From NCBI GenBank assembly GCA_005882635.1, contig VBFG01000042.1, positions 6,578 through 70,577 on the forward strand: 64,000 nucleotides of DNA, given 5' to 3'. Positions within the stretch are counted from its first letter, which is position 1, and each line of letters opens with the position of its first letter. The notes below the pieces were generated by a model. That model had not been told where the DNA came from, did no database searches, and worked only from the letters and a program-made list of their open reading frames with translations. Positions 16,913 to 51,802 of the stretch are shown here, in pieces. The stretch comes from Chloroflexota bacterium. Lineage in GTDB: Bacteria; Chloroflexota; Limnocylindria; Limnocylindrales; CSP1-4. The translations under genes and the position numbers were made by a program.

Positions 16913-17289
16913 TGGTGGAGATGGGGGAGAGTCGAACTCCCCGTCCAGAACCCTTCGCCGGAGACCACTACGAGCGTGTCCGATGGTTTGTCGTCGACCG
17001 CCCGGACGGGCATCGGCACCCTGCCGGTCGGTCCAGTCACGTGCCCCTAGATCGGGCTTGTCTCCGGGCTACGCGACGCTTGCCCGGATCGCAGCCCCGC
17101 TGAATGACGCTTCCACCACCCGCGGGACCGAGGTGGCTTCCACGCTCACACTAGCTGCTTACGCAGCGAGGGCGAGAGCAGACTGGCGGTTGCCAGGTAC
17201 TTCGTTTTGCTGCCTGATTAACGAGGCCTGAGCAGCATCCTCGGCTCGCGTTCCCCGGTAGCCAGGCCCTGTCGAATCCACACATCCCC
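16913..17289 (-). ncRNA. ssrA: tmRNA (transfer-messenger RNA)
   Basis: The minus strand starts GGGGATGTGTGGATTCGACAGGG and ends GGACGGGGAGTTCGACTCTCCCCATCTCCACCA (acceptor/T-arm plus CCA). The internal tag frame ends ...GNRQSALALAA followed by TAA at 17161-17159. smpB lies 4.4 kb away. Confidence 0.95.
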
Positions 17290-17347: not shown

Positions 17348-17585
17348 GCGCGCCCCGAACGATCAGCCGCGGCCGGTCCCCCGATCGGGCCATCCGCCGG
17401 GACCTCGTCGGTTGATATCGTTCTCGGTGGCCGAACCTCCTCTCGAGGACGGGGGACCCGATCCCTGGGGCGAACCGCGAACCGACCGCGGCGGCGAACC
17501 CACGCCGAGCCCGACAGCTCACCTCGCAGGCCCAGCGGGCGCTTCGAGGTACGCGTTGATCCGGCCGTAACTCCCCTCGACCGCG

Positions 17586-29124: not shown

Positions 29125-32103
29125 TCAGCGGCCGTGACACTTCTTGTACTTCAGGCCCGAGCCACACCAGCAGGGATCGTTCCGCCCGATCCGGGCTCCC
29201 GACGGCGTGAAACCCGGCCGGACCGGTCCGCCGCCGTTCGCGCCGTCGGACTGGAGCTGGCGGCCCATCGGATCGGCCGCGAGCCCGCCCGCGACCACGG
29301 GTCCGATCGGCCGCGCCGCGGCCGGTCGGGGCGGCGCTGTCGCGGTGCCGGCCGCCGTCCCGCGCGCCCCGGCCGCCGCGGCCGCCGCGCCACCGCCGCT
29401 CAGCAACGCCGCACCCGCGGCCAGGTTCCGGTCGATGGCCGACGGTCCACCTGGCGGCTGGACCGTGACGGTGACGCGGAAGATCGTCGAGGCGACCTGG
29501 TGCCGGATCAGGTCGCGCAGCTCGCCGTAGAGCTGGTACGCCTCGCGGCGGAACTCGTTGAGCGGGTCCTGCTGGGCGTATCCGCGCAGGCCGATGCCGC
29601 GCCGCATGTCGTCGATCTCGGTCAGGTGCTCGACCCACAGCGAGTCGATCGTGCGGAGGAGGACCATCCGCTCGACGAGCGCCCAGTTCTCCTCGCCGAC
29701 GTCGGCCTCGCGCCGCTCGAGCCGGGCATCGGCGAGATCGAGCAGGTGCTCGGTGATCGCCTCGCGCGAGCCGAGCTCCCACAGGTCATCCTCGCTCGTG
29801 CCCTCGCCATCGAGGCCCATCGCCCGGAGACCGGCCGCGAGCGCCTCCATGCCCCAGTCGTCGGGCGTCTCGCCGGAGAGGTGCCCCTCGACCATCGTCC
29901 GCATCTCGTCCTCGACGAAGGACCGGATGGTCTCGGTCAGGTCCTCGTTCCGGAGGACCTTGTCCCGCTCCGCGTAGATCGTCTCCCGCTGGCGATTGAT
30001 GACGTCGTCGAACTCGACGACCCGCTTCCGCATGTCGAAGTTGAAGCCCTCGACCCGGCCCTGGGCGCTCTCGATCGTCCGGCTCACGAGCCGGTTCTCG
30101 ATCGCGACGTCGTCCTCCAGGCCCATCCGCTCCATGAGGCCCGCGACCCGATCGGAGGCGAACCGCTTCATCAGGTCGTCCTCGAGGGACAGGTAGAACC
30201 GAGAGGAGCCGGGGTCGCCCTGGCGGCCGGCCCGACCGCGGAGCTGGTTGTCGATCCGCCGGCTGTCGTGGCGTTCGGTGCCGATGATGTGGAGCCCGCC
30301 GACGGCGACCACGTGCTCGTGATCCTCGTCGGTGACGATCCTGGCCTCGGCGAGCGCGGCGTCGTAGGTGGCCTTGTCGACCTCGGCCGGGTTCAGCCCG
30401 CGCTTGTGGAGGATCTCCGACGCCAGTCCGGCCGGGTTGCCGCCAAGGAGGATGTCCGTCCCGCGGCCGGCCATGTTCGTCGCGATCGTGACGGCGGCCG
30501 TCCGACCGGCCTGGGCGACGATGCCCGACTCCTTCTCGTGGAACTTGGCGTTCAACGTCTCGTGCCTGATCCCGCGACGCTTGAGCATCGTCGACAGGAT
30601 CTCGGACTTCTCGACGCTGACCGTGCCGACGAGGACCGGCCGGCCGGCCTTCTGCATCTCGACGACCTCGTCGATCAGGGCGTTGAACTTGCCGAGCTCA
30701 TTCCGGAAGACGAGGTCCGGCTCGTCGAGCCGGATCATCTCCTTGTGGGTCGGGATCGCGACGACCTCGAGTTCGTAGATCTTGTGGAACTCCTCCGCCT
30801 CGGTCATCGCCGTGCCGGTCATCCCGGACAGCTTGTCGTAGAGCCGAAAGTAGTTCTGGAAGGTGATCGTCGCGAGTGTCACGGACTCCCGCTGGACCTT
30901 GACGCCCTCCTTCGCCTCGATTGCCTGGTGGAGGCCCTCCGACCAGCGGCGGCCCGGCATCTGGCGGCCGGTGAACTCGTCGACGATGACGATCTCGCCG
31001 TCCTTGACGATGTAGTCGCGGTCGCGCTTGTAGAGGGCGTGGGCCCGGAGCCCCTGCTCGAAGTGGCGAGCCAGACGCGGGTCGGCGTCGTAGAGGTTCT
31101 CGATCCCGAGGAGCTTCTCGATCTTGTCGATGCCCTCCTCGGTCGGCGAGACGGCGCGGTCCTTGAGGTCGACGAAGTAGTCGCCACCGTCTTCGGCGCC
31201 CTCCGGCCGCTCCTGGAGGCGGGGGACGAGCCGGGCGAAGGTGAAGTAGAGGTCGGCCGACTCCTCGGCCTGGCCGCTGATGATCAGTGGCGTCCGGGCC
31301 TCGTCGATGAGGATGTTGTCGACCTCGTCGACGATCGCGAACGCCCGCTCGCGCTGGACCCGGTCGGCGAGGTCCGTGACCATGTTGTCGCGGAGGTAGT
31401 CGAAGCCGAACTCGTTGTTCGTCCCGTAGGTGACGTCCGCGGCGTAGGCCTCCTTGCGGGTGACCGGGCGGAGGTTGATGAGCCGCTCGTCGCTGGTCGG
31501 GTAGCCGGGCTCGAAGACGAACGACGCATCGTGGGTGATCATCCCGACGCTGATCCCGAGGAAATGAAAGACGGGTCCCATCCACTGCGGGTCGCGCCGG
31601 GCCAGGTAGTCGTTGACGGTGACGACGTGGACGCCGCGGCCGGTCAGCGCGTCCAGGGCGGCGGCGAGGGTCGGGACGAAGGTCTTGCCCTCGCCCGTCT
31701 TCATCTCGGCGATCTTCCCCTGGTGGAGGACGATCCCGCCGATCAGCTGGACGTCGAAGTGGCGCATCCCGAGGGTCCGGCGCATCGCCTCGCGACCCAT
31801 CGCGAAGACGTCCGGGAGGACCTCGTCGAGCGCGTCCTGGATCGCGCCGAGCTCCCGCTTGTGGCGGGCCTTCGCGAGCTCGCGGCGCCGCTCGAGGTCG
31901 GGGTGGGTGAGCTCCTCCTCGGTCGGCTCGGTCGGGGTCGAGACCTCCCGGATCTCCTCCCGGATGTCGGCGAACCGCGCGCGGATCTCGTCGTCCGACA
32001 GCGCAGAGATCTCGGGCTCGAGTTCGTTGATCTCGTCGATCAGCGGCTGGATCCGTCGCAGCTCGCGGTCGTTCGAGTCGACGAATCGGGACAGGAATTT
32101 CAT
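29125..32103 (-). CDS. secA: preprotein translocase ATPase SecA
   Basis: Track ORF 29125..32313 trimmed to ATG 32103 (MKFLSRFVDSNDRELRR). Walker A MKTGEGKT, DEAD-like box DEVDNILIDEARTPLIISG, C-terminal zinc motif CWCGSGLKYKKCHG. Confidence 0.95.
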   Translation of the reverse strand: MKFLSRFVDSNDRELRRIQPLIDEINELEPEISALSDDEIRARFADIREEIREVSTPTEPTEEELTHPDLERRRELAKARHKRELGAIQDALDEVLPDVFAMGREAMRRTLGMRHFDVQLIGGIVLHQGKIAEMKTGEGKTFVPTLAAALDALTGRGVHVVTVNDYLARRDPQWMGPVFHFLGISVGMITHDASFVFEPGYPTSDERLINLRPVTRKEAYAADVTYGTNNEFGFDYLRDNMVTDLADRVQRERAFAIVDEVDNILIDEARTPLIISGQAEESADLYFTFARLVPRLQERPEGAEDGGDYFVDLKDRAVSPTEEGIDKIEKLLGIENLYDADPRLARHFEQGLRAHALYKRDRDYIVKDGEIVIVDEFTGRQMPGRRWSEGLHQAIEAKEGVKVQRESVTLATITFQNYFRLYDKLSGMTGTAMTEAEEFHKIYELEVVAIPTHKEMIRLDEPDLVFRNELGKFNALIDEVVEMQKAGRPVLVGTVSVEKSEILSTMLKRRGIRHETLNAKFHEKESGIVAQAGRTAAVTIATNMAGRGTDILLGGNPAGLASEILHKRGLNPAEVDKATYDAALAEARIVTDEDHEHVVAVGGLHIIGTERHDSRRIDNQLRGRAGRQGDPGSSRFYLSLEDDLMKRFASDRVAGLMERMGLEDDVAIENRLVSRTIESAQGRVEGFNFDMRKRVVEFDDVINRQRETIYAERDKVLRNEDLTETIRSFVEDEMRTMVEGHLSGETPDDWGMEALAAGLRAMGLDGEGTSEDDLWELGSREAITEHLLDLADARLERREADVGEENWALVERMVLLRTIDSLWVEHLTEIDDMRRGIGLRGYAQQDPLNEFRREAYQLYGELRDLIRHQVASTIFRVTVTVQPPGGPSAIDRNLAAGAALLSGGGAAAAAAGARGTAAGTATAPPRPAAARPIGPVVAGGLAADPMGRQLQSDGANGGGPVRPGFTPSGARIGRNDPCWCGSGLKYKKCHGR

Positions 32104-32312
32104 GGGACCCCAAGTATAGGGTGCGTGCTCCGGAGCCCCGATCGGGGCTTCCTGGCCGCTCGAGTCACCCGGAGGAACCGCTCTGGAACGACCTGGAGAT
32201 GGCTCCAGGCCATGCAACGGACGCGGATCGCGCTGCCGATTGCTCCCAGCCATATCCGGGACGATGGCAAGGCGCCTCTCTGCGCGGGCGGCTCCGAGGA
32301 CCTCGCCGAACA

Positions 32313-32552
32313 TGGCTCACCGCCATCGGCGAAACGATCTGGGCACCCGGCCGGTCGGCGGAAGCACCGGACTCTCGCGGGGCGAGCGTATCTGACAGGT
32401 CCCGATCCAGATTTGCACGAATGGCTCGTGGGACGAGAATCCCGCGGCGATTCGGCCCGGCGAAGGCCACCTGGGGTCGGGTTGGCGCCCGATTCCTGTC
32501 ACATACGCTCGTGGGGCGAGAAATCGTGACGAGCCGCGAGCCCCCGTTCGGA
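32313..32552 (-). repeat. intergenic repeat element, copy A (three CTCG-CCCCA-CGAG sub-repeats), paralogous to 50749-50981
   Basis: Plus-strand cores at 32508-32520, 32425-32437 and 32374-32386, spaced 83 and 51 nt. Read on the minus strand, the order and flanks match copy B (see findings). Confidence 0.8.
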
Positions 32553-32562
32553 CGACGCGGCT

Positions 32563-33330
32563 TCAGCTCTTCGCCAGGTTGATCAGGAACTCCAGCGTGC
32601 CGTGGTCCTCGACCGACACGAAGCCGCCGATGCTCGGGGCGTTGATCTGGTAGTCCGAGAACGGGAACGACAGCGAGCCGGCGACCTGGATGAGGCTGCC
32701 GTTGACCTGGGCCTGGGCCGGGATGTCGACCGTCTTCGTCACACCGTGGAGCGTCAGGTCGCCGTGGAGCGTGACGTCGACCTGAGCGCCGCTCGTCGCG
32801 GTCGCCGGGAGGGTAACCGGCTGGGTGAGCTTGAACGTCGACGTCGGGAAGCTGTCGGTCTCGATGCCGTCGCGGCGGAGCCGGTTGTCGCGCATCTGGC
32901 GATCGCTCGCAAGCGAGGTCATGTCGACCGTGAAGTCGGCCGCCGTCACGCTCAATGAGCCACCGCTCGACGCGATCGTCGCCGTTCCCGTGATCCCGCT
33001 CGTCCGGCCGACCGCGTCGCTGTCGGCCGACAGGCTCGCCAGCCGCTCGCGGACGCGGTAGCCGACGACGGAGTCCGGGCCGATCGACCACGTCCCGGGG
33101 AGCGCCGCCGCATCGATGGTCGCCGCGGACGCAGGGGCGAGCGTCGTCCCGGCGCTCGGGTCCGCGATCGGGCTGTTCCCCGCCGCCGCCGACGCCGCCG
33201 GTGCGGCGCTCGGCAACGCCAGCGGCGCGACATCGTCACCCTTGAGGAAGAGGACCCAGGCGAGTGCCCCGCCGCCGACGGCAAGCAGGAGGACGGCGAC
33301 AACGGCAAGGCCGGCGGTGCGGGACGTCAT
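32563..33330 (-). CDS. YceI-family (polyisoprenoid-binding) protein with N-terminal membrane anchor
   Basis: TM helix (GLAVVAVLLLAVGGGALAWVLF). YceI-like core (GTWSIGPDSVVGYRV, TVDMTSLASD...RDNRLR, LHGDLTLHGVTK). Confidence 0.85.
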   Translation of the reverse strand: MTSRTAGLAVVAVLLLAVGGGALAWVLFLKGDDVAPLALPSAAPAASAAAGNSPIADPSAGTTLAPASAATIDAAALPGTWSIGPDSVVGYRVRERLASLSADSDAVGRTSGITGTATIASSGGSLSVTAADFTVDMTSLASDRQMRDNRLRRDGIETDSFPTSTFKLTQPVTLPATATSGAQVDVTLHGDLTLHGVTKTVDIPAQAQVNGSLIQVAGSLSFPFSDYQINAPSIGGFVSVEDHGTLEFLINLAKS

Positions 33331-41827: not shown

Positions 41828-42666
41828 GATGCCGCCCCAACGGTCAGCCGCGCCGTGGCTTCGTCGGCGGCCGGATCGACATCCGAGGGCGGGCTGACCT
41901 CGCGGCGATCTCGTCGAAGGAGCTCGGCTGCGAGCTCCGCGTAGGCGATTGCGCCCCTCGAATCGGAGCGATAGAGGGCGATCGGGAGGCCGAAGCTCGG
42001 TGCCTCAGACAGCCGCACGCTGCGCGGGATCACGGTGTCGAACACGGCGCGGCCGAAATGGTTGCGGACCTCGGAAGCGACGTCCGCGGACAGGTTCGTC
42101 CGCGCATCGAACATCGTGAGCACGACGCCCTTGATCGCCAGCGGCGGGTTCAGGTTGTCGCGGACGAGGTTCAGAGTGGCGATCAACTGGGTGAGGCCCT
42201 CCAGGGCGTAGTACTCACACTGCGTCGGGATCAGGATCGAGTCGCAGCCGGTCAGGGCGTTGACGGTCAGCAGACCGAGTGACGGTGGGCAATCGAGCAG
42301 GACGTAGTCGTAGCCAGCGGGCACGTCCCCGAGGGCTCGGGCAAGCCGTCGTTCACGCTGCGGCGAAGACGCCAACTCGACTTCGGCTCCCGCCAGGGCA
42401 ACCGATGCGGGTGCCAGATCGCATCGCTCGACGGATGTCGGCAGGATCACCGACTCGAGGTCGCGATCCCCCAGAAGGACGTCGTAGAGCGTCGCGCGAA
42501 GCGCGTTCCGTTCCACGCCGAAGCCGCTTGTCGCGTTTCCCTGCGGGTCGAGATCGAGAACGAGGATCCGTTGTCCGGAGATGGCGAGGGAGGTCGCCAG
42601 ATTGACTACGGTCGTCGTCTTTCCGACGCCGCCCTTCTGGTTTGCACAGGCGATCGTTTGACCCAC
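41824..42666 (-). CDS. parA: chromosome partitioning ATPase ParA/Soj
   Basis: Deviant Walker A NQKGGVGKTTT. 280 aa. Its stop overlaps the parB start. GTG start. Confidence 0.93.
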
Positions 42667-42701
42667 TCAGGACCGCCCGGAGGAAGCGCTCACGTCCATC
42701 C

Positions 42702-42726
42702 ATTCTAGCATCCGAGGCGGTTTCAC
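42702..42726 (-). promoter_or_regulatory. putative parA promoter (extended -10 TGcTAGAAT) with a half-parS (GTGAAACC) at the -35 position
   Basis: The minus strand reads ggGTGAAACCgcctcggaTGcTAGAAT, about 36 nt upstream of the parA GTG. Prediction only. Confidence 0.35.
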
Positions 42727-42833
42727 CCCTTGATTCGGCGCGCCGTCGACACGGTTGCACACGCTCCTTATCAGCCGATTGACCGGCGCTCTCCGCGTCC
42801 TCGACGCAGCCTCTCCAGCCGGGGTCGGCGGGC

Positions 42834-42849
42834 GGTTTCACGTGAAACC
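42834..42849. promoter_or_regulatory. parS: parS centromere-like site
   Basis: GGTTTCACGTGAAACC is a perfect 16-bp palindrome. The inner 14 positions match the parS consensus tGTTtCAcGTGAAAca. It lies 168 bp upstream of parA. Confidence 0.85.
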
Positions 42850-43044
42850 ACAGACGAGCGCGTGCCTGTTCCGCGGGAACCGTCAGGGACCTCAGAAACC
42901 TCTGCCTATGACCGTCCCGCCCGATCGAACCATTGCCCGTCGGCGTCGTCGCGTGGGATACTGGCAATGGACGTCACCGCCGCCGATCGTCAGATGTCGC
43001 CCGCGATCAAGGCGCGAGTTGGCTCGCCGAGGATCGGATCGCCA

Positions 43045-43548
43045 ATGACCTTGCTCGTCGCCGCGATCGCTGCGACGGTGGCTGCCATCGCTGAATCGAC
43101 CATCACGCCATATCTCCGGGTGGGCAATGCCCAACCGCATCTGGTCTTCGTTCTGGCGGTCGTCTGGACCGTCGCCGTCGGACTCGACAGCGGCCTCGTC
43201 TGGGCGTTCGTTGGAGGACTCGCCCTCGACACGCTTGCCCAGCGACCGCTGGGCAGCACCGCCTTCGCCTTGCTCCTGGCCGTCGGGCTGACCGCGGCCA
43301 TCGCTCGTCCACTCAATCGGCTCCGGCCGATCGCCGCAATCATCGTCACCGCCGTCCTGAGCCTCGTCTATTCGATGACTCTCGTCGTCCTCTTCTCCGT
43401 CCTGCGACCGCCGGCGGCTCTGGCCGAGCCGCTGAAGTTCGTCGCGCCAAGCGTTCCGTACGACGTGATCGTCGCGGCGATCCTTGGTCCGTTGGCCGTC
43501 TCGATCCACGACCGGTTCTCCCATGACGAGGAGCGTGTCCCGCGGTGA
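43045..43548 (+). CDS. mreD: rod shape-determining protein MreD
   Basis: Track ORF 42730..43548 trimmed to ATG 43045 (MTLLVAAIAATV). About 167 aa with five hydrophobic segments. It lies immediately upstream of and overlaps mrdA. ATG 42967 and 42994 are alternative starts. Confidence 0.7.
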   Translation: MTLLVAAIAATVAAIAESTITPYLRVGNAQPHLVFVLAVVWTVAVGLDSGLVWAFVGGLALDTLAQRPLGSTAFALLLAVGLTAAIARPLNRLRPIAAIIVTAVLSLVYSMTLVVLFSVLRPPAALAEPLKFVAPSVPYDVIVAAILGPLAVSIHDRFSHDEERVPR

Positions 43549-50148: not shown

Positions 50149-50442
50149 ATGGCCCACAAGAAGGCTGGCTCCAGCTCCAAGAACGGCCGCGATTCGGTCG
50201 GCCAGCGGCTGGGCGTGAAGGTCGGCGACGGCCAGCTCGTCCCGGCCGGCTCGATCATCGTCCGGCAGCGGGGGATGACGTTCCTGGCCGGCACCGGTGC
50301 CGGGCTGGGCAGGGATTACACCGTGTTCGCGACGACGACCGGCAAGGTCAAGTTCGAGCACGCGACCAAGAACAAGAAGCGGGTCCGGGTCGAGGCCGTC
50401 GAGGCCGGCACCGCGGAGCCCGTGGCTGCCAAGGCCCCCTAG
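50149..50442 (+). CDS. rpmA: 50S ribosomal protein L27
   Basis: [16 protein letters not shown]...GSIIVRQRG is canonical L27. Confidence 0.95.
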
Positions 50443-50516
50443 GGCCGGCAGCGCTAGCCGGCGACCACCGGCCGGGCAACGACCCGGTACGGAAGGCGTC
50501 GGAGGAGAGATTTCAC

Positions 50517-50729
50517 GTGAAGCCCGATATTCATCCCAAGTACTACCAGGCACGAGTCCACTGCGGCTCGTGCGGCACCGAGTGGACCGTGGGGTCCACT
50601 CGCGAGGAGCTCCGCATCGACGTCTGCGCGAACTGCCACCCGTTCTTCACCGGCAAGCAGACGATCATCGACACGGCCGGCCAGGTCGAGCGGTTCCAGA
50701 AGCGACTGGAGCGCCAGGTCCGGGCGTAG
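50517..50729 (+). CDS. rpmE: 50S ribosomal protein L31 (Zn-ribbon type A)
   Basis: MKPDIHPKYY...CGSCG...CANCHPFFTGKQ. GTG start preceded by GGAGGAG. Confidence 0.93.
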   Translation: MKPDIHPKYYQARVHCGSCGTEWTVGSTREELRIDVCANCHPFFTGKQTIIDTAGQVERFQKRLERQVRA

Positions 50730-50748
50730 CCGGGGCCCGGCGTCAGCC

Positions 50749-50981
50749 ATCCGAACGGCGGGTCACCGACCCGCCGTTCTCGATTCTCGCCCCACGACCG
50801 TATCCGACCTGTTCGAGCGGCCGGGAGGGCCTCGACCGGCTGATTCTCGCGGAATCTGCACAGGTTCTCGCCCCACGAACAAACCGTCGCGTTCGGGGCG
50901 CAGCTCGTCGCATACGCTCGCCCCACGAGAATCCCGGCGGTTTCCTTCGAGGGTGAACCGGTTCGCCGAGGCGGTGACCAC
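50749..50981 (+). repeat. intergenic repeat element, copy B (three CTCGCCCCACGA sub-repeats), paralogous to 32313-32552
   Basis: Cores at 50786-50798, 50867-50879 and 50917-50929, spaced 81 and 50 nt. It shares the ATCCGAACGG 5' end, the CGTAT/ATACG flanks and the TTCGCCGAgGCGGTGA 3' block with copy A. Confidence 0.8.
50753..50779 (+). terminator. hairpin after rpmE (11-bp perfect stem GAACGGCGGGT/ACCCGCCGTTC, 5-nt loop)
   Basis: Starts 24 nt after the rpmE stop. It is followed by tctcgattctc (weak U-tract) and forms the 5' part of repeat element copy B. Confidence 0.5.
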
Positions 50982-51016
50982 CGCGAGGACGCCACACATC
51001 CCGTAGGATCGACGGC

Positions 51017-51802
51017 GTGACGACGGCGATCGGCCTCGACGACACGCCGGCATCAAGCACCGCCGCTTCGGCGACCCTCTGGCAGGGCGACAGTCGCGAG
51101 CTCCTGGCCCGCCTCCCGGACTCGAGCGTCGACCTGATCTGCACCGACCCGCCGTACAACCTCGGGACCTACTCGACCGGCAACATCGAGATGTCCTGGC
51201 GGAAGGCGTTCAACAACGATGTCGCCGCCTGGGATCAGCTCCCCTTCGACCCGGCCGCGTGGCTCACCGAGTTCAGGCGCGTCCTGAAGCCGACGGGCAC
51301 CCTCTTCGCCTTCACGTCGTACAACCTGCTCGGCCGGTGGCACGAGGTGTTCGACCCGGCGTTCGACACGTTCCAGTTCGTCGTCTGGCACAAGACGAAC
51401 CCGCCCCCGAAGCTCCGTCGCGCCGGTTTCCTGAACTCGTGCGAGCTGATCGTCGCCTGCTGGGATGCGGGCCACACCTGGAACTTCACCCGCCAGCGCG
51501 ACATGCACAACTTCATCGAGGCCCCGATCTGCGCCGGCCGAGAACGGGTCAAGGACCCCGTCCACCCGACGCAGAAGCCGCTGCGCGTCCTGCGCCAGCT
51601 GATCGAATGGGGCTCCAGACCGGGCGACGTCGTGCTCGACCCATTCATGGGTGTCGGCTCGACGGGCGTGGCCGCGCTGGAGCTCGGCCGGCGGTTCGTC
51701 GGGATCGAGCTGGAGCCCGCCTACGCCGACGCGTCCCGGCGGCGGCTGGCCGCGATGGACTTCGCCGGCGAGGGAGCCGGTCCGTTCGGCGACGCAGGCT
51801 AG
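51017..51802 (+). CDS. orphan beta-class DNA methyltransferase (N6_N4_Mtase family, DPPY motif then FxGxG)
   Basis: Motif IV TDPPYN precedes motif I DPFMGVGSTG (beta-class order). Also WHKTNPPP and HPTQKP. No nuclease or specificity gene is adjacent. The GTG start lies 7 nt after a TAGGAT -10-like hexamer, so the transcript may be leaderless. Confidence 0.85.
   Translation: MTTAIGLDDTPASSTAASATLWQGDSRELLARLPDSSVDLICTDPPYNLGTYSTGNIEMSWRKAFNNDVAAWDQLPFDPAAWLTEFRRVLKPTGTLFAFTSYNLLGRWHEVFDPAFDTFQFVVWHKTNPPPKLRRAGFLNSCELIVACWDAGHTWNFTRQRDMHNFIEAPICAGRERVKDPVHPTQKPLRVLRQLIEWGSRPGDVVLDPFMGVGSTGVAALELGRRFVGIELEPAYADASRRRLAAMDFAGEGAGPFGDAG

Follow-up and report, generated by a model that had tools for sequence, protein, structure and literature searches.

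In this study we analyzed two copies of an intergenic element, A and B, in a 64-kb stretch of Chloroflexota DNA (contig VBFG01000042.1; "the window" in the following), located between yceI and secA and downstream of rpmE, respectively. Together they define a low-copy, previously undescribed family of modular intergenic elements of about 165 nucleotides (nt), which is found in soil Chloroflexota related to Candidatus Limnocylindrales and uses the 13-nt motif CTCG-YCCCR-CGAG as its repeated module. The element most likely folds, according to structure prediction, into a long stem that leaves the C-rich centres of the motifs unpaired. The explanation that we favor, at a probability of roughly 45%, is that of a structured 3'-untranslated region (3'-UTR) or intercistronic RNA which shows three C-rich pentamers, held in a fixed geometry, to a conserved trans-acting factor and which affects 3'-end formation, stability or insulation.

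Each block of the architecture outlined for the two copies in the original prediction was present where expected (Table 1), and the genes named there as neighbors of copy A were confirmed by Pfam as YceI and SecA. The 5' block TCCGAACGG begins 10 nt downstream of the yceI stop codon (TGA, 32565-32563) in copy A and 20 nt downstream of the rpmE stop codon (TAG, 50727-50729) in copy B. The CTCG-to-CTCG spacings of 83 and 51 nt in copy A and of 81 and 50 nt in copy B were likewise reproduced. The copies are 64% identical across ~235 nt (E = 1.8e-13) and score 148.9 bits (copy A, 32363-32530, minus strand) and 141 bits (copy B, 50776-50940, plus strand) with covariance model R1. The core pattern TCTCGYCCCRCGA, allowing at most one mismatch, has seven matches in the window versus 2.6 +/- 1.45 in shuffled sequences, with none of 100 shuffles reaching seven; six of the seven matches are the two core triplets. 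Neither a profile hidden Markov model nor the covariance model detected a third copy in the window.

Members beyond the window were sought by pattern scans of genome and metagenome collections and on contigs reached through L31 homologs, which gave nine three-module members in total: copies A and B and the loci L018, L072, L073, L076, L078, L090 and L101, with near-identical strains (L001-L011, L074, L077) contributing no further variation. The elements of L072, L078, L090 and L101 lie 3' of rpmE and are orthologs of copy B. The remaining ones reside between a DegV-like gene and the glutamate dehydrogenase gene of a Chloroflexota metagenome-assembled genome (MAG; L018), downstream of an enolase-superfamily gene (L076) and, in shortened form, downstream of glpX (L073). 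The idea that only two copies might exist does not hold, as the three-module form occupies five independent genomic sites and several Chloroflexota MAGs carry related 51-nt arrays. In these arrays, the hairpin (TT)GCTCG-CCCCA-CGAGC(AA) is repeated in tandem; they occur in a Limnocylindrales MAG (L066), a Chloroflexia MAG (L028, L055, L063) and in L040, and match the portion of the family profile that extends from core 2 to core 3. Conservation of the hairpin sequence across Chloroflexota classes points to a conserved partner rather than to structure alone. Two spacer types alternate in the L066 array, creating a 102-nt super-repeat, and one Chloroflexia MAG (MFD09206.bin.2.195) has three separate 51-nt arrays.

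The family is rare. A scan of 241 million metagenome records yielded only five distinct loci, and among 185,579 species genomes L018 was the sole three-module element found; the 58 loci returned by the three-core genome scan were mostly unrelated tandem or low-complexity repeats with periods of 7, 14, 19, 24, 42 or 72 nt, the relevant ones being only L018 and the Chloroflexota 51-nt arrays. Further elements were absent from ~130 kb of relatives' DNA, and phage, plasmid and IMG/VR collections gave no related match. The window DNA is matched exactly by soil-metagenome contigs, and the closest named homologs of its L31 and YceI proteins come from Chloroflexota and Candidatus Limnocylindrales MAGs. 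Rfam 15 gave no gathering-score match on the window copies; permissive thresholds, E <= 10 for either copy and E <= 1 for eight related loci, produced no match either. A literature search with the core sequence, both strands, returned one irrelevant primer match only. The earlier statement that no described element carries this signature thus agrees with Rfam 15, the phage and plasmid collections and the literature search.

Seven of the nine members are 163-168 nt long, the exceptions being L073 (126 nt) and L101 (178 nt), and seven align across 170 columns nearly without gaps, the few indels being single bases. In seven members the core-to-core distances amount to 81-83 and 47-52 nt, compared with 51/41 in L073 and 83/61 in L101. 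Identity reaches 76-91% in the cores and adjacent helix strands versus 28-53% in the spacers, the latter being near saturation for DNA of 65-70% G+C, and the asymmetric centre YCCCR is conserved as strongly as the arms. From these alignments, the length of the element appears to be under selection. For copies A and B the contrast is 84% (cores and helices) versus 45% (spacers), which, together with the uniform length of seven of the nine members, bears out the view that the two are old paralogs constrained in geometry and not a recent duplication. A small protein-coding open reading frame was rejected, since stops and frame-shifting indels vary between members and column identity by codon phase (0.73/0.72/0.75) lacks a 3-nt periodicity; the absence of codon periodicity and the presence of 1-nt indels indicate that the element is not coding. 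With their unequal spacings, the cores fall into different reading frames.

The same comparison speaks to a neutral explanation, according to which the element is the functionless relic of a decayed minisatellite with similarity kept by chance or by gene conversion. The 51-nt arrays of related genomes, whose spacers repeat as well, the variable number of modules (L073, L090) and the many close relatives without the element would all suit a relic. Against it stand the sharp identity contrast between cores or helices and spacers, an alignment nearly free of indels despite near-saturated spacers, compensatory base changes and a uniform orientation, and we regard this explanation as highly improbable.

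In the consensus fold, helix P1 (6-7 bp) is formed by the 5' arm of core 1 and the 3' arm of core 3. Helix P2 (14 bp) links the 3' arm of core 1 and the ~10 nt that follow it to the 5' arm of core 3 and the ~10 nt that precede it. Of the three YCCCR pentamers, those in modules 1 and 3 are predicted to face each other as a 5x5 internal loop, and the third to be exposed by a short local hairpin of module 2. RNAalifold, run unguided, predicted P1, P2 and the local 4-bp hairpin of core 2. When seven sequences were folded singly, five adopted this rod as their unconstrained minimum-energy structure; in L018 and L090 it lay 0.1-1.6 kcal/mol above the minimum, and in these two core 2 can take the place of core 1 in pairing with core 3. 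Both window copies also have more stable folds than their shuffled counterparts (z = -2.5 and -2.4). In the nine-sequence alignment A5, 85.7% of the P1/P2 cells can pair, versus 20-48% when the partners are slid against each other (maximum 47.5%). Six pairs show compensatory changes (12 cells), and the observed covariation is attained by 1 of 500 shuffles. In L101, pair 22-158 is U-A where all others have an invariant A-U; this swap keeps P2 intact, whereas local hairpins of cores 1 and 3 would acquire U-U and A-A mismatches. In addition, the sequences flanking these two cores in three-module elements lengthen the long-range helices and not their own hairpins.

These findings bear on two structural proposals of the original prediction. 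The long-range 12/13 complementarity between CGTATGTGACAGG and CCTGTCAGATACG noted in copy A is real and turned out to be part of a helix conserved family-wide; it is the best-supported structural feature. By contrast, the small CTCG/CGAG hairpin envisaged for every core lacks covariation in the nine sequences and is contradicted by the L101 swap for cores 1 and 3. Thus, among the sequences aligned, it is the long-range pairing and not a set of three mini-hairpins that is supported by covariation. Within the two spacers, no further conserved structure was seen except the GAATC...GATTC pairing before core 2, and a G-run able to form a pseudoknot with the C-rich pentamers does not occur in every member.

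At nine independent loci, the C-rich strand is invariably the sense strand of the upstream gene (9/9; chance 2^-9). The first module begins 15-55 nt past the upstream stop codon at eight of the nine; at L055 the nearest identified upstream gene ends ~570 nt away. The distance to the downstream promoter or start is variable, ~90 nt for copy B and ~270 nt for copy A, and the L063 array faces a convergent gene and accordingly has no downstream promoter. We detected neither promoter-like sites in or upstream of the element nor terminator-like sites in 31900-32800 or 50400-51200, and AATTTTCG after P1 was found in L073 only. An intrinsic terminator was discarded as an identity for the element, there being no U-tract hairpin in these two intervals. 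The terminator-like hairpin 3' of rpmE fails the consensus terminator scan because its T tract is weak; it is present as well after rpmE of relatives devoid of the element, and copy A retains just the 5' half of such a hairpin in degenerate form. The sense-strand position and the lack of detectable promoters and terminators fit co-transcription as a 3' UTR, and we infer from position that the element would be transcribed as a 3'-UTR or intercistronic part of the upstream mRNA.

Table 1. Coordinates of the two window copies, of neighboring features and of the 51-nt arrays (array positions refer to their own loci)
Feature	Position	Strand	Details
Copy A	32313-32552	minus	5' block TCCGAACGG 32552-32544, three cores, 3' block TTCGCCGATGGCGGTGA 32333-32317
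Copy A core 1	32520-32508	minus	CTCG-CCCCA-CGAG; P1 5' strand 32523-32517, unpaired pentamer 32516-32512, P2 5' strand 32511-32498
Copy A core 2	32437-32425	minus	CTCG-TCCCA-CGAG; local 4-bp hairpin; GAATC (7 nt) GATTC just before
Copy A core 3	32386-32374	minus	CTCG-CCCCG-CGAG; P2 3' strand 32396-32383, unpaired pentamer 32382-32378, P1 3' strand 32377-32371
Copy B	50749-50981	plus	5' block TCCGAACGG 50750-50758, three cores, 3' block TTCGCCGAGGCGGTGA 50962-50977
Copy B core 1	50786-50798	plus	CTCG-CCCCA-CGAC; P1 5' strand 50783-50789, P2 5' strand 50795-50808
Copy B core 2	50867-50879	plus	CTCG-CCCCA-CGAA; GGAATC (7 nt) GGTTC just before
Copy B core 3	50917-50929	plus	CTCG-CCCCA-CGAG; P2 3' strand 50907-50920, P1 3' strand 50926-50932
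Terminator-like hairpin 3' of rpmE	50753-50779	plus	GAACGGCGGGTC-ACC-GACCCGCCGTTC
Insertion with copy A (403 nt)	32160-32562	minus	exactly between yceI stop 32565-32563 and the conserved secA hairpin and TATACT promoter
Promoter-like TATACT of secA	32118-32113	minus	9 nt before ATG 32103-32101; outside the element
51-nt array, L063	5159-5395	minus	sense strand, downstream of genes
51-nt array, L028	7284-7624	minus	sense strand, downstream of genes
51-nt array, L055	4361-4588	minus	sense strand, downstream of genes
51-nt array, L066	3583-3921	minus	sense strand, downstream of genes

According to the explanation that we favor, the three head-to-tail CUCG-YCCCR-CGAG modules would be co-transcribed with the upstream mRNA on the sense strand, and a rigid fold would display three single-stranded C-rich pentamers at a set geometry. 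These might provide a docking platform for a trans-acting factor conserved among Chloroflexota. Such a factor could be an RNA-binding protein or nuclease with sequence specificity, perhaps Rho, or else a G-rich RNA; once docked, it would influence how the 3' end of the upstream message is formed or how stable that message is, and would insulate the downstream promoter. Rho utilization (rut) sites have no conserved sequence or fold, and hairpins may loop out between their C-rich segments, e.g. in lambda tR1 rutA-boxB-rutB. The element resembles them as C-rich single-stranded RNA that directly follows a stop codon and precedes the next promoter, but differs in that its stems are invariant in sequence.

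Several points weigh against this explanation. The partner factor is hypothetical, and the case for transcription and its strand comes from position. The covariation derives from nine sequences, of which five are orthologs at a single locus, with a shuffle control that takes no account of relatedness, and the core-arm parts of P1 and P2 pair trivially, the motif being palindromic and directly repeated. Nor does the wobble test favor the sense strand: P1 and P2 contain ~6 G-U versus ~11 A-C cells, and the latter would be G-U on the opposite strand. Moreover, the family is patchy even in close relatives, as would be a dispensable or selfish element, and strict spacer lengths together with distances near multiples of ~10.2 nt (41, 51, 61, 82) are more natural for helical phasing of DNA than for RNA. 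Finally, copies A and B lie on opposite sides of an orientation switch at ~42-43.5 kb that adjoins parB and gyrB, so that transcription orientation cannot be separated from replication orientation.

The spacing and wobble results would both be at home in a phased array of double-stranded DNA sites, in which the cores are 13-bp pseudo-palindromes (CTCG-N5-CGAG) bound by a protein, e.g. a nucleoid-associated or regulatory factor. The sites would share one face of the helix at distances of 8 and 5 turns, and the DNA may be wrapped. Spacing is tight (81-83 and 47-52 bp) despite near-saturated spacers, the variant spacings are near 10.2-bp multiples as well (L073 41 and 51, L090 60, L101 61, arrays 51), and the G-U/A-C count gives no RNA strand signal. 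Core-to-core distances in general cluster near multiples of ~10.2 nt (41, 51, 60-61, 81-83, and 51+41 in L055), with the exception of 47 in L018; this period was picked after the data had been seen. Such an array is nevertheless unlikely in our view. P2 has its compensatory changes outside the cores, at positions where a protein site would be expected to show conservation and not covariation, the asymmetric YCCCR centre is conserved like the arms, and the orientation relative to the upstream gene is the same at all loci. In addition, the distance to the downstream promoter or start varies widely, with a convergent gene at L063, and the 47-bp spacing of L018 is off-phase with respect to a repeat chosen post hoc.

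An independent or 3'-UTR-derived trans-acting small RNA, whose C-rich loops pair with G-rich targets, would account for the unpaired pentamers without invoking a protein. 6C, RsaE/RoxS and CcsR ('cuckoo') RNAs are multi-hairpin C-rich families, and CcsR RNAs are found in tandem after a gene on the sense strand. The likeness lies in short GC stems with unpaired C runs and modules side by side, and the sense-strand location after a gene, the tandem modules and the fact that the three pentamers are always unpaired in the best-supported fold are all in line with it. 6C RNA has two adjacent C-rich apical loops and is encoded by a free-standing gene with a promoter and a terminator of its own. In the present family, however, two of three pentamers are strands of an internal loop and not apical loops, and the host belongs to the Chloroflexota and not the Actinomycetota. 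The original prediction had suspected a mismatch to 6C RNA, which proved correct: neither at gathering score nor at E <= 10 was there a match to RF01066, and 6C RNA was rejected on these grounds, on the internal-loop placement of two YCCCR pentamers, and on the absence of a detected promoter or terminator. The latter absence counts against any independent small RNA, and stems as well as loops are invariant in sequence here. Furthermore, leaderless mRNAs appear widespread, with TATACT or TAGACT 8-10 nt before starts, which would make Shine-Dalgarno-type G-rich targets scarce. We consider it very unlikely that the element acts in this way.

Comparison with relatives revealed how copy A came to its place. 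It lies in a clean 403-nt insertion between yceI and the hairpin and promoter of secA (Table 1). In relatives with empty sites, the yceI-secA spacer is 58 nt (L092, YceI 89% identical) or 72 nt long (L094/L095), and these spacers already contain the GC hairpin and the TATACT promoter. The earlier argument that the element is not the secA leader is corroborated by this arrangement, as the 58-nt spacer of L092 has hairpin and promoter and copy A is located upstream, within the insertion. Homology to copy B is limited to positions 11-246 of the insert, and the right-hand 153 nt (32312-32160) have no homolog in copy B or any locus compared. Starting with an ATG at 32313, the segment 32160-32312 continues in the secA reading frame, while gene callers and Pfam put the SecA start at 32103. 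At the insert borders, comparison with L092 showed that terminal inverted repeats are lacking and that any repeat is limited to the 2 nt 'GA'. At the rpmE locus, the element is present in five lineages and absent in L080, L084-L089 and L102, with core-like remnants in L081-L083 and L091; in all, the L31 and YceI homolog loci are mostly empty sites (L080-L089, L091, L092-L099, L102). Modules duplicate and decay: L090 has four modules owing to duplication of the first, and decayed modules occur in L081, L091 and L101. The family thus spreads by duplication or insertion at the DNA level, as shown for copy A, and by tandem duplication of modules. Whether read as RNA or as DNA, the copies mark sites of insertion and turnover beside the core genes rpmE and secA.

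Two peculiarities were noted at rpmE loci of relatives. In L090 (250-382) the rpmE stop codon is lost (GCG TTG, not GCG TAG), so that the predicted L31 protein has 103 amino acids and extends across the terminator hairpin and the first core, which is degenerate; the extension may be genuine or may reflect an error in the assembly. In L091 (1125-1159), rpmE is followed by a lone inverted core-like hairpin, GTGCTCG-CTGGGG-CGAGCAC, with a G-rich loop on the sense strand, the only inverted unit that we saw.

Such mobility would be expected of a selfish element that acts as a single-stranded DNA hairpin. It would belong to an HUH/Y1-type enzyme (IS200/IS605-like, RAYT-like), either as a non-autonomous derivative or as the site that the enzyme recognizes; the conserved hairpins on one strand would serve as substrate, and the orientation bias would stem from the lagging-strand template and not from transcription. 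This would explain presence/absence polymorphism at two loci, including an insertion after the yceI stop with neither inverted termini nor a clear target duplication and an rpmE locus occupied or empty among relatives, as well as the duplication (L090) and decay (L081, L091, L101) of modules. The hairpins are direct repeats on the same strand, a fold without G-U bias suits DNA, and copies A and B, flanking the orientation switch, could both be co-oriented with replication. On the other hand, copy number is very low (two per 64 kb, five metagenome loci, L018 alone in species genomes), no transposase was found among the flanking genes checked, and there was no plasmid, phage or IMG/VR match. Finally, five lineages carry the element at an orthologous site, and in four of them cores, helices and length have been preserved with the spacers close to saturation, which argues for long-term selection at a fixed place. 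Taken together, we judge a selfish element of this kind to be quite unlikely.

Several known repeat classes were considered in this context. Families of repetitive extragenic palindromes (REP) and bacterial interspersed mosaic elements (BIME) consist of GTAG- or CGTC-tagged palindromes, with a 5-13-bp stem and an unpaired tag, and head-to-tail units are absent or rare among REP families (PMC3733652). Our elements resemble them as extragenic GC-rich palindromes that lie mostly 3' of coding regions, between co-directional or convergent genes, and that are plausibly transcribed. They were nevertheless set apart: their units, (GA)TTCTCG-CCCCA-CGAGAA(TC) or TTGCTCG-CCCCA-CGAGCAA, are untagged, and the CGTC before core 3 is paired in P2. 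REP/BIME units number tens to thousands per genome, mostly as head-to-head or tail-to-tail dimers, whereas here there are two elements per 64 kb with all modules head-to-tail. Neither RAYT nor another transposase was encoded among the flanking genes checked in the 64-kb window and the short contigs. A miniature inverted-repeat transposable element (MITE) was rejected since the insert borders have no terminal inverted repeats or clear target-site duplication and the P2 inverted repeat is internal, with a sequence that differs between members. A CRISPR array does not fit: there are only three 13-nt cores, their gaps are unequal (~70 and ~38 nt), A, B and the orthologs share homologous spacers, the 'spacers' of the 51-nt arrays repeat one another, and no cas genes occur among the annotated neighbors.

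Mycobacterial interspersed repetitive units (MIRU), a type of variable-number tandem repeat (VNTR), are intergenic tandem units of ~51-53 bp oriented with the flanking genes, to which their short open reading frames are coupled. The 51-nt arrays of L066, L063, L028 and L055 are similar in this respect. As an explanation for the window copies and family members, in distinction from the 51-nt arrays, a MIRU-type coding minisatellite was dismissed in view of the 83/51 and 81/50 spacings, the missing 3-nt periodicity and the single-nucleotide indels between members. Pneumococcal BOX elements (boxA-boxB(n)-boxC) are modular and intergenic, with outer modules that pair, inner modules that vary in number and >100 copies per genome. 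As in BOX, the outer modules of our elements close a long stem and module number varies (most three, L090 four), with L073 as a shortened version whose modules lie close together; unlike BOX, the family is low-copy and all its modules are copies of one 13-nt motif, and the two have no sequence relationship.

The surroundings of the copies provided further observations. The -10-like hexamer TATACT that had been pointed out 9 nt upstream of the secA ATG was confirmed and is conserved in relatives whose yceI-secA spacers lack the element (L092, L093, L094); secA is therefore probably transcribed, judging from the sequence, into a leaderless mRNA or one with a very short leader. Similar hexamers (TATACT, TAGGAT, GGTAGACT, TACTCT) were seen 8-10 nt upstream of the starts of secA, the methylase gene, DUF1385 and others (window positions 32113-32118 and ~50998-51003; also in L081, L084, L091 and L092-L094), and this pattern suggests that leaderless or near-leaderless mRNAs are common in the lineage. 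Copy B is flanked, according to Pfam, by genes for ribosomal protein L31 and an N6/N4 DNA methylase (51017-51802), beyond which lie DUF1385 and RF-1. Overall, the genes next to the elements are housekeeping genes without relation to each other. What comes after rpmE varies among relatives: DUF1385-prfA follows directly in L081, an ECF-sigma-like gene is found in L072 and L078, the DNA methylase gene in the window and L090, and both in L101. The orphan N6/N4 methylase gene is an insertion relative to L081.

Gene orientation switches at ~42000-43500: to the left, gyrA, gyrB and parB are encoded on the minus strand, and to the right, the plus strand carries mrdA, rodA and the genes for L21, L27 and L31. 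Cumulative GC skew has its maximum at ~40-42 kb; L084 and L094 show a like layout with parA/parB. The region at ~42-43.5 kb may be origin-proximal. At some distance from both copies, the window harbors a transfer-messenger RNA gene (118.7 bits, 16913-17289, minus strand) and a cyclic di-AMP (ydaO-type) riboswitch (60.3 bits, 17419-17546, plus strand), ~130 nt apart on opposite strands and both above the Rfam gathering thresholds.

Returning to the structured 3'-UTR RNA, a more far-reaching version, which we put forward tentatively and consider rather doubtful, is that the rod-shaped scaffold represents a new Chloroflexota class that recruits a dedicated factor. It may end or insulate transcription after stop codons, and the 51-nt arrays would be multimeric versions of it. 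The context would be one of very GC-rich genomes with leaderless mRNAs and without U-tract terminators.

New candidate RNA motifs are common; the element family described here is real, conserved and previously undescribed. Its design is unusual in that a single 13-nt motif is used three times, its halves being shared among long-range helices and its centres being left unpaired. If the DNA reading were true, the element would show where a Chloroflexota DNA-binding factor binds and which phasing rule it follows. To our knowledge, almost no regulatory RNA is known for Limnocylindria-type Chloroflexota. If the fold and a sense transcript hold true, the element would represent a new structured RNA family from these very abundant, uncultured soil bacteria.

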